From Bacilli bacterium (GTDB lineage Bacteria; Bacillota_I; Bacilli_A; RF39; UBA660), in assembly GCA_017626405.1 (NCBI GenBank), contig JAGAIS010000002.1, forward strand, positions 62,189 through 126,188: a DNA stretch of 64,000 nucleotides, given 5' to 3'. Positions 45,453-64,000 of the stretch are shown piece by piece. Position 1 is the first letter of the stretch. Every line of letters begins with the position of its first letter. The translations under genes were made by a program, and so were the position numbers. The notes beneath the pieces are model-generated. The model saw only the letters and a list, made by a program, of their open reading frames with translations. It was not told the DNA's origin and ran no database searches.

Positions 45453-45479
45453 TTAGCACTTACTACTTGACAGTGCTAA
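45453..45479. promoter_or_regulatory. CIRCE (HrcA operator) upstream of htpG
   Basis: TTAGCACTT-N9-CAGTGCTAA versus consensus TTAGCACTC-N9-GAGTGCTAA. Starts 7 nt after a TATAAT (45441-45446) and ends 37 nt before the htpG ATG. Confidence 0.75.
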
Positions 45480-45515: not shown

Positions 45516-47393
45516 ATGGCTAAAAAACAATTTAAAGCCGAGTCAAAAAAATTAATGGATTTAATGATTAATTCCATTTATACGAATAAAGAAATATTCT
45601 TAAGAGAATTAATATCTAATGCTAGTGATGCAATAGATAAATTGCATTATAAATCGCTTACTGATGAAAATGTAAAAGTAAATAAGAAAGATTTTCAAAT
45701 TAATGTATCAGTAGATGAAGAAGCTCGTACTATTACAATTAGTGATAATGGTATTGGTATGACTGCCGAAGAACTTGAAAATAATTTAGGAACAATAGCT
45801 AAAAGTGGATCAAGTGTATTCAAGGAAGAAAATGAACATAAAAAGAATATTGATATAATTGGTCAATTTGGTGTTGGATTCTATTCAGCATTTATGGTAG
45901 CATCAAAAATCAAAGTTGTATCTTTAGCTTATGGAGAGAGTGATGCTAATGTATGGGAATCAAGCGGAATAGATGGTTATACAATAAAAAGATGTGAAAA
46001 AGATACATACGGAACAGAAATAACTTTATTTATTAAAGAAGATGATGAAGATAATAACTATAGTGAATTTCTTCATGAACATACAATTTCTTCACTTATT
46101 AAAAAATACTCTAATTATATAACCTATCCAATTAAGATGAAGATGCATAAATCTGAATATAATGAAGAAACTAAAGAGTCTGAAGAGAAAGAGGTTATAG
46201 AAACTCTAAATGATATGGTGCCTCTATGGAAGAGAAATAAATCAAAGATAACTGATGATGAATACAATACTTTCTATTCTGATAAATTCTTTGATTATGA
46301 AGCTCCAATAGCAAAAATTCATACATCAGCTGAAGGACTAGTAAGTTATAATTCACTTTTATTTATTCCATCACATGCTCCATATGATTTCTATACTAAG
46401 AGTTATGAAAAAGGGTTACAACTTTATTCTAATGGCGTACTAATAATGGAGAAGTGTGCTGAACTTTTACCAGACTATTTCAGTTTTGTAAAAGGAGTTG
46501 TTGATTCACCTGATCTATCACTTAACATAAGCCGTGAAATGTTACAACAAGATAAAACTCTTACTACTATTGCGAAGTCACTTGAGACAAAAATAATAAA
46601 AGAATTAACTGACTTACAAAATGAAAAGAGAGAAGACTATAATAAGTTCTTTGAATCATTTGGAGCAAATATTAAATTTGGTATCTATGATCAATTTGGT
46701 ATGAATAAAGATAAATTAAAAGATTTATTAGTATTCAAGACTTCATTAAAGGATAAATCTATTACTCTAAAAGAATATGTCGATGGAATGAAAAAAGGAC
46801 AAGAAGCAATCTACTATTGTTGTGGCGAATCAATAGATAAAATAGATATGTTGCCTGTAGTTGAAAGCATCAAAGAAAAAAATTATGAAATTCTATATTG
46901 TACAGATTATATGGATGAATTCGTTCTTCAAACAATTGGGGAATATGATTCAAAGAAATTAGTTAATATAGCTAAAGAAAATGTTGATTTATCTGACGAA
47001 GAAGAAAAGAAACAAATTGAAGAAAAGAATAAAGACAGTAAAGATATGTTAGATTTTATTGCTTCATCAATCGATGGAATTGAATCAGTTAAATTTACTA
47101 ATAGACTTAAAAATCATCCAGTATGTTTAGTAAGTACGGGTGATGTAACAATTGAAATGGAAAAAGTAATTAATGCTATGCCAACTGATGAACATATAAG
47201 TGCTAAGAAAGTACTTGAAATAAATGCCAATCACAAGATAGCAGAAAAACTAGATAACCTTTATAAAAATGATAAAGAAGAATTGAAACGAGTTTCTAAG
47301 ATTCTATATGAATCATCAAGATTAATTGAAGGGTTATCAGTTGAAAATCCAACAGAACTTACTAATTTAATTTGTGAAGAGTTAACTAAATAA
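45516..47393 (+). CDS. htpG: molecular chaperone HtpG (Hsp90)
   Basis: FLRELISNASDAIDK, ISDNGIGM, IGQFGVGFYSAFMV GHKL-ATPase motifs; 625 aa. Confidence 0.95.
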   Translation: MAKKQFKAESKKLMDLMINSIYTNKEIFLRELISNASDAIDKLHYKSLTDENVKVNKKDFQINVSVDEEARTITISDNGIGMTAEELENNLGTIAKSGSSVFKEENEHKKNIDIIGQFGVGFYSAFMVASKIKVVSLAYGESDANVWESSGIDGYTIKRCEKDTYGTEITLFIKEDDEDNNYSEFLHEHTISSLIKKYSNYITYPIKMKMHKSEYNEETKESEEKEVIETLNDMVPLWKRNKSKITDDEYNTFYSDKFFDYEAPIAKIHTSAEGLVSYNSLLFIPSHAPYDFYTKSYEKGLQLYSNGVLIMEKCAELLPDYFSFVKGVVDSPDLSLNISREMLQQDKTLTTIAKSLETKIIKELTDLQNEKREDYNKFFESFGANIKFGIYDQFGMNKDKLKDLLVFKTSLKDKSITLKEYVDGMKKGQEAIYYCCGESIDKIDMLPVVESIKEKNYEILYCTDYMDEFVLQTIGEYDSKKLVNIAKENVDLSDEEEKKQIEEKNKDSKDMLDFIASSIDGIESVKFTNRLKNHPVCLVSTGDVTIEMEKVINAMPTDEHISAKKVLEINANHKIAEKLDNLYKNDKEELKRVSKILYESSRLIEGLSVENPTELTNLICEELTK

Positions 47394-59076: not shown

Positions 59077-59201
59077 TCAATACTCGAAAAGTTCGAGTAG
59101 ATTTCAAAATGGGGCGATAACAAAGGTTATCTGAAACCCTAAAGTAAAAGTTGATAAACAACTAATTTCTATACACATTATAGCATACTTTTTTTATTAA
59201 T

Positions 59202-61325
59202 TCACATTTTTTTAATCATTTCATATAAATTTATTAATTCGTCATCACTCATATCAATTATCGGCTCATACATAAACGCATTAACATGAATATTTTCTGA
59301 TACCATAATTCTTACTTTTTCAGATATACTTTTTTCTTCATATGTAAGTAAATTATTATTAACACAGTAATCAATTAATTCATATGTCTGATTGCTTGTG
59401 AAACCATTAACTACATTCCAATCATTAAATTTATTAAATAATTTCTTTTCAAATAACAATCTTATAGCTATCGATAGAATTAATTTATTATGTAATTCTA
59501 TTTCAGTAGTTCCTTGTCGTATATTATCTGTAACGTCAAATAGTAAATCTATAAATTTAGAGTCTTTAAGATTAGAACTTGTATTAATATGAGTTTTAAA
59601 TATATCATTTATTTGTAAAGTTGTTATTGTTTCTGTATTTTTCTTATAATGCAAACAACTTGTAAGAAGTAAATAATCATTATCCTGATTTCCATTAGTC
59701 ATTTCTATTATATTTCTCGTAAATGGAATAGATGCTATGAAGTATTTAGAATCATTAATTCTATCTTTGAATGATGTAAATACATTTCTAGTGAAATGAA
59801 AATCAATTAAATTAATTTCATTCTCTTTTATAACTGATAATTTTTTTACATGTAATCTATTAGCACATGCTCTGTAGAAGTCAAAATTATGTGTCAAAAT
59901 TACTAAATGGAATGTACTATTATTATTCAACTCCTTCAATAATTCTATTATTGCATATTTGTTTTTATAATCAAACGAATCTGCTATATCATCTAAAACA
60001 AATATTGTTTCTATGTTATTTTCTTTTCTATATTGTATTTCAAATATAAGATTAAGTATATTAAATGCTTTTCTTTCACCTTTACTTAAATTATCTTTTA
60101 ATAAATTTTTATCTACATTTTCATTAACATCATATTTGTCTTTAAACTTATAGTTCAAGGAGCATGCACTATTTTTTAATATAATATCACTTATATTATT
60201 AACTTCTAATTCAAATGGCATATTTATAAATTTGTCGTTAAATTCAGTTATGGCATTATTCCATTTTTTGTAATTGTCTAAATCAGTAGTTTTATCAATA
60301 ATTTCTTTTAATACTTTACTATTTAAATTATAGTTATTTATGTAGTTTTCAATTGCATTTTTAATATCACTTGTACTTAATACATAATGCCAGTATTCTT
60401 TTTTTAATGTATTTAAGTCTTTAATCATAGGAATAATCCATTGATTTTTTGATAAAAAAGTATTTAACTCTTGAGATTTAATTTTTCCAGTCAAAACTTC
60501 ATTTGCCTTTTTAACATTTTTATCTATACTTAATTGATTATCTAAATCTTCAATTAAATCCGTGATTGTTTTTTCATTATAATCATAGAATTTTTCTTTT
60601 TGTTTAATACTCTTAAACTTTAATAAATGTCCTGGTTCAAAATAATTATTTGAAGATAAACTTTTTATGATAGTCTTTAAATTATATAATTCGAAAACAT
60701 CTTTTATAAAAATATCATTGTTTTCAATTATTTCATTACATATTTTAATATAATTATCAACAGTCTCAATAATATCTTTTTGCCCAAATATTTTTAAATT
60801 ATCATCAGTAAATAATTTATTATATTTAATATCTTTAAAACTTTCATTGGCGTCATCTGAATTTAATAAATCAGTTTGTATGTCATTTAAATTAGAAATT
60901 TTTAAATCAAATAAGACAGTTTGTAGTTCAACACCTGAAAGTGATTTTATTTTTTTATTTATATCCTTATAATTTTTTTCCAATGAAGAATATACTTGAT
61001 CATATTCTTTTTTTAAAGATGGATTGACTAACAATGACGTCATTTCTTCATTAGCTATTTCATAGTCATCACTATCGATCACAACCAAACCATTAGTATC
61101 TAATGGGCTATCATCTTCAATAATAATATTTCTAATCGTTGTTCTTTTAGGAAAATATACATCAGAACTATCAATTCCTTCTTTATACTCTTTCATAGTT
61201 TTTGAAAAACTTGTCTTCATTGAACCATTTGGTGCATAAATTAAATAATCATTATTTAAATCAAAATTATATTTTAATTTATTTATACCATGACAATATT
61301 CTAAATCTAGTTTTAGTTCTTTCAT
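59202..61325 (-). CDS. AAA_13-type (PrrC/RloC-like) ABC ATPase with long helical insertion and uncharacterised C-terminal domain
   Basis: LIYAPNGSMKTSFSK (Walker A-like), LSKGERKAFNILNLIF (ABC signature-like LSxGE), IFVLDDIADSFD (Walker B/D-loop), VILTHNFDFY (H-loop). About 300 aa lie between Walker A and the signature. Strong GGGAGGAG RBS. Confidence 0.75.
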   Translation of the reverse strand: MKELKLDLEYCHGINKLKYNFDLNNDYLIYAPNGSMKTSFSKTMKEYKEGIDSSDVYFPKRTTIRNIIIEDDSPLDTNGLVVIDSDDYEIANEEMTSLLVNPSLKKEYDQVYSSLEKNYKDINKKIKSLSGVELQTVLFDLKISNLNDIQTDLLNSDDANESFKDIKYNKLFTDDNLKIFGQKDIIETVDNYIKICNEIIENNDIFIKDVFELYNLKTIIKSLSSNNYFEPGHLLKFKSIKQKEKFYDYNEKTITDLIEDLDNQLSIDKNVKKANEVLTGKIKSQELNTFLSKNQWIIPMIKDLNTLKKEYWHYVLSTSDIKNAIENYINNYNLNSKVLKEIIDKTTDLDNYKKWNNAITEFNDKFINMPFELEVNNISDIILKNSACSLNYKFKDKYDVNENVDKNLLKDNLSKGERKAFNILNLIFEIQYRKENNIETIFVLDDIADSFDYKNKYAIIELLKELNNNSTFHLVILTHNFDFYRACANRLHVKKLSVIKENEINLIDFHFTRNVFTSFKDRINDSKYFIASIPFTRNIIEMTNGNQDNDYLLLTSCLHYKKNTETITTLQINDIFKTHINTSSNLKDSKFIDLLFDVTDNIRQGTTEIELHNKLILSIAIRLLFEKKLFNKFNDWNVVNGFTSNQTYELIDYCVNNNLLTYEEKSISEKVRIMVSENIHVNAFMYEPIIDMSDDELINLYEMIKKM

Positions 61326-61367
61326 TTTATCACTCCTCCCACATCTAGAAAGTTCCTAACTACTGCC

Positions 61368-61396
61368 ATTTTATAAGTTTAAAACTATAAAGTCAA
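61368..61396 (-). promoter_or_regulatory. candidate sigmaA promoter of the ATPase gene (TTGACT-17-TAAAAT on minus strand)
   Basis: Reverse complement of 61391-61396 is TTGACT and of 61368-61373 is TAAAAT, with a 17-nt spacer. Confidence 0.45.
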
Positions 61397-61402
61397 TAGT
61401 TT

Positions 61403-61429
61403 TTAGCACTTATTTTTTAAGAGTGCTAA
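61403..61429. promoter_or_regulatory. CIRCE (HrcA operator) in the leader/promoter region of the PrrC/RloC-like ATPase gene
   Basis: The minus strand reads TTAGCACTC-N9-AAGTGCTAA (17/18 to consensus TTAGCACTC-N9-GAGTGCTAA). Lies 78-104 nt upstream of the ATG at 61325. Confidence 0.7.
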
Positions 61430-61488
61430 ATTATATTTATATATATTATGTATAATATATATAATTATAAAATTTTTAAATTTTTTTC

Positions 61489-61524
61489 AAAAAAAAAATA
61501 TGCTATTAAAAATAATTAGCATAT
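61489..61524 (-). terminator. rho-independent terminator after the XRE gene (minus strand)
   Basis: ATATGCTA...TAGCATAT 8-bp stem, followed on the minus strand by a T-run (A-run 61491-61498 on plus). Confidence 0.6.
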
Positions 61525-61527
61525 TTT

Positions 61528-61767
61528 TTAGTTAGAATCATCAAATAATTGTCTTATGTCTATTTCTAAAGCATCAGCAAATTTTCCTATTGTTTCTAAT
61601 AATGGTGTTTTATCTATTGATAAGCATTCTAAATCTCTAACATAACCATGAGTAAGTCCAGTTAAATCTGCAAGTTCTTGAAGTGTGTACTTTCTCATTA
61701 AGCGATATTTCTTTATATTTTTTCTAACAATTAATGATAATTGTTCTTTAGAATATCTACTAGTCAA
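61528..61767 (-). CDS. XRE-family helix-turn-helix transcriptional regulator
   Basis: IKKYRLMRKYTLQELADLTGLTHGYVRDLE HTH_3-type motif, 79 aa, TTG start after GAGGAAGTGAGG. Confidence 0.85.
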   Translation of the reverse strand: MTSRYSKEQLSLIVRKNIKKYRLMRKYTLQELADLTGLTHGYVRDLECLSIDKTPLLETIGKFADALEIDIRQLFDDSN

Positions 61768-61876
61768 AGTACCTCACTTCCTCTCTTGTAAAATTATTTC
61801 ATAAAGATTTTGAAAAATATGTCGTCTGTGTGAAGTTTTTATGATATAATTAAAATTGAAAGGAGATAAGGTTTAT

Positions 61877-62494
61877 ATGAAGACTAAAAAATGTAAACAT
61901 TGCCAAGAAGAAATTGCAAAAAGTGCAAAGAGATGTCCTAAATGTGGTGGAAAATTAGGAATGCCAGGTTGGGCTAAAGCTTTAATTATAGTTGTAATTA
62001 TATTTGGTTGTATCGTTGGATGTGTTAATGGTTGTTCAAATGCAGTAAATGATGCTGTTGAAGATACTAAAAATTCTTATAAAGATATAAATGGAAAAAC
62101 TTCATTTAAAGTAAATGAAACTTTCCAAAACAAATATGAAAAAATAACTATGACTGAAGTAAATACTAATGTCACTGATTATAGCGAATATCTAGGACCA
62201 AAAGATGGCAATAAAATCATTGCATTAAAATTTGAAGTTGAAAATATTAATGAAGAGAATGATGAATTATATGTTAGTAGTATGAGTTTTAATGCCTATG
62301 CTGATGGTGAAGCTGTTGATTCATATATGTATGGAAGTGATAAATATAAAGACTTATCAGCAACACTTGGAAAAGGAAAGAAAGCTGTAGGTTATGTATT
62401 ATATGAAGTTCCTAAAAATGCTCAAAAGATAACTGTTGAGTATAATGCAGATTTCTGGACTGATGGTAATGCTATCGAATTTGTAGTTCAATAG
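61877..62494 (+). CDS. zinc-ribbon / single-TM / DUF4352-like extracellular domain protein
   Basis: CKHCQEEI...CPKCGG zinc ribbon, TM helix ALIIVVIIFGCIVGCV. The C-terminal beta-rich domain (KFEVENINEEN...GYVLYEVPKNAQKITVEY) resembles DUF4352. AAGGAG RBS before ATG 61877. Confidence 0.7.
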   Translation: MKTKKCKHCQEEIAKSAKRCPKCGGKLGMPGWAKALIIVVIIFGCIVGCVNGCSNAVNDAVEDTKNSYKDINGKTSFKVNETFQNKYEKITMTEVNTNVTDYSEYLGPKDGNKIIALKFEVENINEENDELYVSSMSFNAYADGEAVDSYMYGSDKYKDLSATLGKGKKAVGYVLYEVPKNAQKITVEYNADFWTDGNAIEFVVQ

Positions 62495-62551
62495 AAGTAA
62501 AAAACTGGCTAATTTATAGTCAGTTTTATATTGAATAAATATATATAAAGC

Positions 62552-62578
62552 AAAAGGAAGAGATAAACTCTTCCTTTT
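62552..62578. terminator. bidirectional rho-independent terminator
   Basis: AAAAGGAAGAG-ATAAA-CTCTTCCTTTT perfect 11-bp stem, between convergent genes. Confidence 0.7.
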
Positions 62579-62650
62579 GAAAAACTTCTACCAAGTGTAT
62601 AAATACACCTGCAACAATCTAAAGTACCTTAATTATACCATTTTAAATGG

Positions 62651-63466
62651 TTAAGTCAACACTTTTTCACGATTTTCTTTAGATTTATTATAAATAGTAT
62701 TTTGCTTTCTGATAGTTCTATTTGTTTCTTTTATTTCTTCAAAAGCATAATACTTCTTTATTATTTTTAATATAGCATCATTATCTTTTTTAGTAATAGT
62801 TGCTATTTTATTATTTATATAATATGGTTCTCTAATTCTATTAGAACTTATGTTAATTAAGTTTTCTAATCTCGCAGTTCCTAGTTTTTCATCTAATAAA
62901 TCATAATGAAAATAATAATTATCATCTTTATGTTTTGAAGTAAGTGGTATAGCAGTCCACATTTTTTTATTTGATGCACTTCTCCATAATATTGCTGGTC
63001 TTAACTTTCTTAATTCACTACCAATATTATAACCTAAATCTACCCAATATATTGCTCCAACTTTTAAATTAGTAGTATCATCAGTATTTTTATTTATTAA
63101 TTCTAATTTATCTTTACACCATTTATTATATGATATGCCATCCGGATCATTATTTGTATTATCTTTGACATAGTTTAAAAAACTAATTTTAGATTTTAAT
63201 AAAATATCATCAAATTCTTTATTAGTTATTTTAATAGGTTTACCTTTAATATAAACACATCTTTTAATATTGGAACGATTATAATCAGTTATTTCATCAA
63301 ATACCACATATTTATTAATAGATTTTAAATGAATACTATTTTCTTTTTCTTCATTATAAACAGGTACTCCAACATAATGATTTTGTGATATATCATAAAG
63401 AATCAAAATCCATTGTTTATTATCATTTAAATTAAATTCATATATTTGTTTCCAATTTATAGTAAG
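62651..63466 (-). CDS. oversized PemK/MazF-like protein (intact C-terminal toxin-like domain, degenerate N-terminal copy)
   Basis: VGAIYWVDLGYNIGSELRKLRPAILWRS...WTAIPLTSK matches the PemK/MazF core pattern (GdIywvdf...GsE..k.RPaliv...v.piTs). ATG 63466 follows a GGTGA RBS. Confidence 0.65.
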   Translation of the reverse strand, partial: LTINWKQIYEFNLNDNKQWILILYDISQNHYVGVPVYNEEKENSIHLKSINKYVVFDEITDYNRSNIKRCVYIKGKPIKITNKEFDDILLKSKISFLNYVKDNTNNDPDGISYNKWCKDKLELINKNTDDTTNLKVGAIYWVDLGYNIGSELRKLRPAILWRSASNKKMWTAIPLTSKHKDDNYYFHYDLLDEKLGTARLENLINISSNRIREPYYINNKIATITKKDNDAILKIIKKYYAFEEIKETNRTIRKQNTIYNKSKENREKVLT

Positions 63467-63496
63467 CATATTTATCACCAACTTTCTTTATTTTAA

Positions 63497-64000
63497 TTAT
63501 CTTTCTAGTTCATCATCTTTTGATTTTTTGGTTTCATAAAATTCTTCAGCATACTCATTCATTTCATCATTAATGTGCTTTGTTGCTTTATCAATTTCCT
63601 TTTTATTAAATAAATTAAAACCTTTAAATGATTTTTCTCTCTTTCTTATAACTTCAGGATCATATTGTTGTTTAAAAAAATTAAGATTAATATTATTGTA
63701 ATTAAATAATCTATCAATTAATTCTTGGATAAATTCAGGTAATTTTTTGATTATTTTATTTAAGTGATAAATAAGATAATCAGTTTTTTCTTTTAAATCG
63801 TTGTATCTAGTTTCAGTTTGATAGTTAATATTCTTTAAATATTCATTTTCTTCTTTTAACTTTTTATTTTCGTCTAATAACTGATTTTTAGATTTAATAA
63901 CAATTTTATTATTAAGTTTTTTCTTTTTATCAATTTCATCTTTGATATCATCTTTATCTTTATTAAGTTTTGTTATTTGCTTATTAATAGATTCTTTATT
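63497..64000 (-). CDS. 3' part of a coiled-coil protein (start beyond the right edge)
   Basis: Minus-strand frame open from 64000 to the stop at 63497-63499. Translates ...NKESINKQITKLNKDKDDIKDEIDKKKKLNNKIVIKSKNQLLDENKKLKEENEYLKN...EEFYETKKSKDDELER. Not in the ORF track because it has no start in the window. Confidence 0.55.
   Translation of the reverse strand, partial: NKESINKQITKLNKDKDDIKDEIDKKKKLNNKIVIKSKNQLLDENKKLKEENEYLKNINYQTETRYNDLKEKTDYLIYHLNKIIKKLPEFIQELIDRLFNYNNINLNFFKQQYDPEVIRKREKSFKGFNLFNKKEIDKATKHINDEMNEYAEEFYETKKSKDDELER

Follow-up and report, generated by a model that had tools for sequence, protein, structure and literature searches.

A predicted HrcA operator in front of a candidate anti-phage ATPase gene carried by a mobile element of low-GC gut Bacilli

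In a 64,000-nucleotide stretch of DNA from a Bacilli bacterium (GenBank assembly GCA_017626405.1, contig JAGAIS010000002.1, positions 62,189 to 126,188; the whole 64-kb stretch is called the window below), the gene for a 707-residue ATPase of the candidate anti-phage family PDC-S46 is preceded by an inverted repeat of the CIRCE (controlling inverted repeat of chaperone expression) type, which is probably a functional operator through which the heat-shock repressor HrcA controls that gene. The gene stands last among the cargo of a small integrative mobilizable element (IME), and comparison with its relatives suggests that CIRCE was recruited to the ATPase promoter in one clade of PDC-S46, on tRNA-targeting IMEs and small restriction-modification (RM) islets of low-GC gut Bacilli and Mollicutes-like bacteria. 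In that case an operator and a repressor known from elsewhere would have acquired a target of a new class, one carried by a mobile element. The features on which the argument turns are as follows, with arm mismatches counted ungapped against the consensus TTAGCACTC-N9-GAGTGCTAA (for the CIRCE consensus see PMC3806222 and PMC545781).

61403..61429, minus strand: predicted HrcA operator, CIRCE-type inverted repeat TTAGCACTC-TTAAAAAAT-AAGTGCTAA; 1 mismatch; kept in 8 lineages
61368..61396, minus strand: sigma-70-type promoter TTGACT-17-TAAAAT; scores 10/12; -35 and -10 nearly invariant in relatives
59202..61325, minus strand: 707-residue PDC-S46 family protein; residues 1 to ~510 an ABC ATPase head of SMC/Rad50 type with a coiled-coil insert, residues 511-707 a helical domain

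Read on the coding (minus) strand from 61429 to 61403, 17 of the 18 arm positions agree with the consensus and are separated by exactly 9 nt, and the element lies 78-104 nt 5' of the ATG at 61325. These particulars had been given in an earlier reading of the DNA from its letters alone (the sequence-only reading), and all of them held when the sequence was read again. The same is true of its statement that the sole other copy in the window precedes htpG: scans of the 64 kb return the same two sites, 61403-61429 and 45453-45479, whether up to three or up to four mismatches are allowed, and an NCBIfam match identifies the gene behind the second site as htpG. One hundred dinucleotide-preserving shuffles of the window yielded no CIRCE match. 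Functional copies of CIRCE carry no more than two mismatches (PMC5138195), and the window copy, with one mismatch and the exact spacer, falls within that range.

Loci were then compared that carry relatives of the ATPase at graded protein identity. CIRCE is kept in all eight of the sampled lineages whose ATPase is at least 73% identical to that of the window, despite unrelated upstream neighbours (compared for six of the eight). Each line gives the locus with its ATPase identity, the palindrome and, where compared, the upstream neighbour.

Window (100%): TTAGCACTC-TTAAAAAAT-AAGTGCTAA; 1 mismatch; Xre-family helix-turn-helix (HTH) gene
L090-L095 (84%): TTGGCACTC-TAAAAAAAT-ATGTGCTAA; 3 mismatches; Eco57I-like RM
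L110 (82%): TTAGCACTC-AGAAAAAAT-ATGTGCTAA; 2 mismatches; Eco57I-like RM
L106 (81%): TTAGCACTC-ATAAAAAAT-AAGTGCTAA; 1 mismatch; NgoFVII/Dcm RM
L010 (81%): TTAGCGCTC-TATTCGAAA-AGGTGCTAA; 3 mismatches
L011 (80%): TTAGCACTC-GCAAAAAAT-AAGTGCTAA; 1 mismatch
L359-L361 (79%): TTGGCACTC-ACAAAAATT-AAGTGCTAA; 2 mismatches; DNA methylase/NgoFVII RM
L109 (73%): TTAGCACTC-ATAAAAAAA-TAGTGCTAG; 2 mismatches; HD-domain gene

Retention of the element at orthologous loci was a check that the sequence-only reading had itself put forward, and its answer has a clear boundary: CIRCE is missing from the 67% clade (L096-L099), in which promoter and leader are the same and follow directly on a tRNA-Gly gene, from the 54% (L358) and 52% (L100-L105) clades, and from all distant homologues, at 37% identity or less. 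Among the eight CIRCE-bearing sequences the mean pairwise difference is 0.075 in the left arm and 0.042 in each of the -35 and -10 hexamers, as against 0.35 in the CIRCE spacer, 0.30 in the promoter spacer and 0.24 in the upstream flank. The arms are thus three to four times more conserved than spacer and flanks, and on a par with the promoter hexamers. The core GCAC...GTGC is intact in seven of the eight lineages (the left half is GCGC in L010) while the spacer turns over, for example to TATTCGAAA in L010. Constrained arms around a drifting spacer indicate that this is the pattern of a selected protein-binding palindrome, and the contrast, repeated across lineages, ties the palindrome to the ATPase gene rather than to the HTH gene or to the machinery of the mobile element.

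The last point bears on the possibility that the palindrome is instead the operator of a local regulator of the C-protein or CapH kind, its likeness to CIRCE being coincidence or mimicry. The regulator in question would be the product of the gene next to the ATPase promoter:

61528..61767, minus strand: 79-residue Xre-family HTH protein; a mobile-element gene, unlinked to the palindrome elsewhere

This HTH_3 gene is the next one upstream, reads in the same direction as the ATPase gene and matches the PADLOC models HTH_VI and capH as well as RM 'control protein' models. Among the CIRCE-bearing lineages, however, it occurs only in the window-type element, and this reading is rejected because the palindrome persists in lineages without the HTH gene nearby (counted as seven, with upstream neighbours compared for five of them). 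In addition, the exact HTH protein occurs on 795 contigs and the ATPase on 17, so that the former is not specific to the latter; the promoter of the HTH gene itself has no CIRCE half-sites; the C-protein operators known from Mollicutes are unrelated sequences (PMC5282649); and a 17/18 match to CIRCE is not expected by coincidence. Control by the HTH protein is therefore extremely improbable. A maintenance site of the element, either an origin of transfer (oriT) or an attachment (att) site, was also considered and rejected, as the palindrome accompanies the ATPase where no recombinase or Mob gene is nearby (L106, L109, L359) and the end of the IME is 2.2 kb away.

The remaining features of the intergenic region bear on how the palindrome would act.

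61464..61490, minus strand: upstream promoter candidate TTGAAA-15-TATAAT; weak, with a non-canonical 15-nt spacer, partly conserved
61333..61340, minus strand: ribosome-binding site GGGAGGAG, 7 nt from the ATG
61493..61529, minus strand: perfect 13-bp hairpin and T-run, the intrinsic terminator at the end of the HTH gene; insulates the ATPase promoter

Since the HTH gene ends in a strong terminator of its own, the ATPase gene requires its own promoter, and the 13-bp hairpin with its T-run makes read-through from upstream unlikely. Promoter-like matches are common in this AT-rich stretch (10 observed against 5.9 expected), and the top-scoring one of the region, at 10/12, is TTGACT-17-TAAAAT, which the sequence-only reading had picked out as the downstream promoter and which is conserved in the relatives. 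Its -35 begins 6 nt past CIRCE, and in the CIRCE-bearing lineages the palindrome is always found 6-7 nt ahead of the -35. The upstream candidate is not kept in L090, L010 or L109, and only weaker alternatives (9/12) are listed near it. With the downstream promoter as the conserved one, CIRCE would lie at about -42 to -68 relative to the start predicted near 61361, outside the 5' untranslated region. The earlier proposal that it sits within that region, in the classical arrangement, needs the partly conserved promoter with the 15-nt spacer and is not upheld; CIRCE instead abuts the conserved -35 from upstream.

The same layout decides much about an alternative in which the palindrome works at the RNA level, as a hairpin within a leader that begins at the upstream start, and affects mRNA stability or attenuation instead of, or besides, serving as a DNA operator. 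CIRCE has been reported to affect mRNA stability in B. subtilis. A 9-bp hairpin does fold in the predicted leader (z = -2.9 for the whole 138 nt), and the arm substitutions in L010 and L090 are A-to-G transitions that would retain G-U pairs in RNA of the coding strand, although these are too few events to interpret. On the other hand, the sole well-conserved promoter lies downstream of CIRCE, which leaves the hairpin outside the transcript that starts there; the upstream promoter is 15-nt spaced and, as noted, not kept in three lineages; most lineages fail to pair at the innermost positions of the stem; and the hairpin is not followed by a T-run. A role in RNA is accordingly very unlikely, and a terminator or attenuator is ruled out by the missing T-run together with the downstream position of the conserved promoter.

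The second copy of CIRCE offers an independent view of the repressor with which the ATPase operator would have to engage.

45453..45479, plus strand: second CIRCE, TTAGCACTT-ACTACTTGA-CAGTGCTAA; 2 mismatches; overlaps the -35 TTGACA of the htpG promoter
45516..47393, plus strand: htpG, Hsp90-family chaperone of 625 residues (NCBIfam equivalog, E=3e-201)

This site is kept in relatives at 93% and 74% HtpG identity even though the flanks diverge, and is degraded in a relative at 71%. Its conservation suggests an HrcA regulon at work in the host lineage, seen here independently of the ATPase gene. An operator next to the -35 is, moreover, by no means confined to the window. The layout CIRCE-N6/7-TTGAC is found on at least 120 metagenome contigs (loci L237-L356), many of them from the human gut, with a GC content of 35-55%, and the downstream open reading frame is htpG in 95 of the 104 loci in which one could be called; the others include two ClpB-like genes, one match to a DnaK probe and one sigma-32-type-like factor. 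The htpG promoters among them read CIRCE-TTTTTTC-TTGACTTTT-(about 17 nt)-TAnnAT. The fixed layout on these contigs, together with htpG of the window, argues that HrcA sites around the -35 are a recurrent, selected design, and CIRCE abutting the -35 can be regarded as a widespread heat-shock promoter design, found mainly at htpG, which helps the prediction of regulons in uncultured gut Firmicutes. The metagenome htpG and clpB promoters, which are probably from Clostridia-like organisms, share with the ATPase promoter the operator, the 6-7 nt to a TTGAC(T/A) -35 and the -10 about 17 nt further on. They differ from it in their targets, which are a chaperone or protease rather than a mobile-element ATPase that is a candidate for anti-phage defence, and in the right arm of CIRCE, which begins with G in them and with A or T at the ATPase gene. 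Capture of the promoter from htpG was considered, but the linker between CIRCE and the -35 is A-rich at the ATPase gene and T-rich at htpG, and direct copying thus finds no support.

Of the transcription factors of the Mollicutes, HrcA is the best conserved, and in Acholeplasma heat induces the promoters under its control about 100-fold (PMC5138195). The sequence-only reading had taken CIRCE to be normally restricted to groESL and dnaK, which is too narrow, since HrcA regulons vary in their known or predicted members, which include clpB and lon in Mollicutes (PMC5138195) and rpoH in Geobacter (PMC545781); a wider HrcA regulon has been defined in Helicobacter, as the title of PMC6843607 states; and the present scan adds htpG, ClpB-like genes and a sigma factor. 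Literature searches returned no paper that links HrcA or CIRCE to anti-phage genes, defence candidates or mobile-element cargo.

Several observations weigh against a functional operator at the ATPase gene. The genes hrcA, grpE, dnaK, groEL and groES were not found by tblastn in the window and the first 110 loci, a search with approximate probes over 64 kb and flanks that is uninformative about the genome as a whole; as hrcA was not found in the DNA searched, taxonomy and the htpG footprint are the grounds for assuming that the host has the repressor. In no lineage does the right arm begin with the consensus G, A or T standing in its place. Three lineages (L110, L359, L109) have two mismatches and two (L090-L095 and L010) have three, and the latter exceed the limit of two reported for functional copies (PMC5138195), which could reflect relaxed selection. 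The lineages that carry CIRCE are all rather closely related, and shared ancestry accounts for part of the conservation. CIRCE lies upstream of the -35, whereas the classical groE and dnaK operators of Bacillus cover the transcription start. Finally, PDC-S46 is an unvalidated defence candidate.

The off-consensus base and the accumulated mismatches are what would be expected were CIRCE a passenger or decaying relic, that is, were the promoter pieced together from a heat-shock promoter or the product of recombination with one, so that CIRCE persists through the youth of the lineage with little or no effect while it slowly degrades. In keeping with this, Spiroplasma copies with more than two mismatches appear to be non-functional (PMC5138195), and the 67% clade has the same promoter without CIRCE. 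Against it stand the conservation of the arms relative to spacer and flanks, at the level of the -35 and -10, the integrity of the core in seven of eight lineages while the spacer changes, and the distance to the -35, which is fixed at 6-7 nt as in the 95 htpG promoters. A relic of this kind is unlikely, if by no means negligible.

Were the palindrome the functional HrcA operator that is favoured here, its action could be envisaged as follows. The HrcA of the host, kept active by free GroEL, would bind CIRCE and, as CIRCE ends 6 nt before the -35, impede RNA polymerase at the only well-conserved promoter of the gene, thereby silencing a probably toxic ATPase or effector. Titration of GroEL by unfolded proteins, in heat, in other proteotoxic stress or possibly in a burst of phage proteins, would render HrcA inactive, and the ATPase gene would then be transcribed along with htpG and the chaperone operons. 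A further step is to suppose that the purpose of such control is to detect phage infection by way of GroEL titration, with phage structural proteins switching HrcA off and hence a toxic effector with an ABC ATPase and a HEPN-like domain on. This extension is unlikely; so too, and to a like degree, is its corollary that the mobile element, for the purpose of sensing infection, borrows an operator of the host rather than carrying a regulator of its own. If HrcA control is real, a mobile element can enlist a universal stress repressor of its host as the switch for a candidate defence or toxic gene, the HrcA regulon reaches past chaperones and proteases to horizontally acquired cargo, and there is a concrete link between proteostasis stress and bacterial immunity.

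How defence genes are held off and turned on has been worked out in few systems, and in most of these the regulator is a dedicated neighbour. CapH/CapP, BrxR/WYL and the C-proteins of RM systems likewise gate a potentially toxic defence gene at the level of transcription. Unlike these, in which the regulator is encoded with the system, the predicted regulator of the ATPase gene is a global host repressor that the element does not carry, and the local HTH protein is dispensable for the palindrome. In classical Bacillus and Clostridium operons CIRCE sits between promoter and start codon. The operators of groESL and hrcA-grpE-dnaK-dnaJ in Bacillus subtilis and Clostridium are the same 9-N9-9 inverted repeat, presumably read by the same GroEL-dependent repressor, and differ from the present one in two respects, as CIRCE here precedes the -35 and the gene behind it is an accessory, mobile one.

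The ATPase itself matches the PADLOC profile PDC-S46 with E=1.8e-182, residues 1-706 aligning to positions 1-717 of 719. It is no different in kind from other members of PDC-S46, a family that is pan-bacterial, spans many phyla and is also found on plasmids, whereas CIRCE is limited to the clade of at least 73% identity. Pfam and NCBIfam return no significant family, with only weak SMC_N and ABC-transporter tails (Pfam to E<=10), and a sequence search of the PDB with the family profile gave only marginal matches to Smc4 and EcfA2. An AlphaFold model built from 27 homologues has a mean pLDDT of 80.7, and its N-terminal ~510 residues resemble the ATPase heads, with coiled-coil insertion, of SMC, Rad50 and retron-associated ABC proteins (Foldseek E 3e-6 to 1e-3). 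The invariant motifs are N33, G34, K37, T38 and S39 of the P-loop, S414, G416 and E417 of the ABC signature, D445 and D446 of Walker B, and H479. The P-loop is a variant, YAxNGxMKTS (residues 31-39), with Met in place of the second Walker A glycine; M36 is nearly as invariant as its neighbours among the 27 homologues, which extend down to 35% identity.

The C-terminal domain (511-707), modelled separately with a pLDDT of 87.5, contains the invariant residues R622, E626 and H680 and has no Pfam match. Its best matches in the PDB are HEPN-fold RNase toxins (HepT/MntA, SO_3166, Las1, Cas13b and Csm6), at non-significant scores (E>=0.56, probability <=0.66). The sequence-only reading had described the protein as PrrC/RloC-like and its gene as defence-type. 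As a functional analogy the former is reasonable, in view of the N-terminal ABC-type ATPase, the C-terminal helical domain with R622-x3-E626...H680 and the RM neighbours in several lineages. It does not extend to family membership, because Pfam AAA_13 has no match even at E<=10 and the HEPN-like fold matches are non-significant. Further differences are the long coiled-coil insert, which gives the fold matches to SMC and Rad50, and the setting, which is not a type I hsd locus: the neighbours are type II or IIG RM genes or none, and the window copy follows the HTH gene. PrrC is, besides, controlled post-translationally and not through a heat-shock repressor. That the gene is of defence type is borne out to the extent that PDC-S46 is a candidate family and that the ATPase genes of closer relatives adjoin RM, Fic/SoFic and GmrSD-type genes in several lineages, but PDC entries are unvalidated candidates, and a literature search found no paper that names PDC-S46.

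That the ATPase gene is mobile-element cargo was not mentioned in the sequence-only reading. The gene order of the IME is serine recombinase, Mob_Pre relaxase, a 272-residue PemK-domain protein, a DUF4352 protein, the 79-residue Xre HTH protein and the ATPase; the recombinase, the relaxase and a tRNA-His gene lie beyond the end of the window, as seen in L001.

59106..64000, minus strand: part of the IME inside the window (ATPase, HTH, DUF4352 and PemK-domain genes)
59106..59118, minus strand: right end of the IME, ...ATCGCCCCA, resembling the 3' end of tRNA-His
61856-62494, plus strand: zinc-ribbon and DUF4352 protein; IME cargo, on the strand opposite to the PemK-domain gene
62651-63481, minus strand: 272-276-residue protein with a C-terminal PemK/MazF toxin domain, the N-terminal half unassigned; IME cargo

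All copies of the IME share about 96 nt past the ATPase stop codon, up to ...ATCGCCCCA, and then diverge into the sequences of different hosts (L003, L004, L005, L008), while the opposite end adjoins tRNA-His(GTG). The element thus has the recombinase and relaxase, the defined ends, the tRNA target and the different host backgrounds by which an IME is recognised. No obvious antitoxin partner was seen for the PemK-domain gene. The presence of the exact HTH protein on 795 contigs and of the ATPase on 17 indicates that the HTH protein is part of an element backbone that is far more widespread and whose cargo varies. The host is an organism of 22-35% GC, its gut-type genome being put at 26%, and its nearest named relatives are metagenome-assembled genomes labelled 'uncultured Bacilli', 'Mollicutes bacterium', 'Erysipelotrichales bacterium' and 'Candidatus Ventrenecus'.

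Related loci show other associations with mobile DNA and tRNA genes. In the 84% lineage (L090:10822-16593, and L092) a second element with a recombinase and Mob_Pre follows directly after the ATPase, which indicates that two mobile elements are in tandem there, by accretion at one site. In the CIRCE-less 67% clade the ATPase comes directly after tRNA-Gly(TCC) (L096:7718-8001), and in the CIRCE-bearing 81% lineage L106 (4704-8001) it is near tRNA-Gly with an RM cassette in between. The ATPase family seems to be found repeatedly at tRNA-linked integration hotspots.

CIRCE also occurs on viral contigs, where perfect copies mostly stand ahead of genes for GroES, a small heat-shock protein, HtpG or ClpB-like proteins, and a few sites adjoin phage structural or replication genes. 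On two IMG/VR contigs a perfect or one-mismatch CIRCE lies directly 5' of the genes for a major tail protein (phrog_807; L206) and a Holliday-junction-resolvase-like protein (phrog_190; L357), and L357 has both the layout of CIRCE, 6/7 nt and TTGAC and the AAGTGCTAA right arm of the window. Some phages, too, may borrow HrcA control. A 41.9-kb viral contig (IMGVR_UViG_3300038675_000167; L167:5424-5548) carries three perfect copies of CIRCE 49 nt apart, flanked by open reading frames without a PHROG match.

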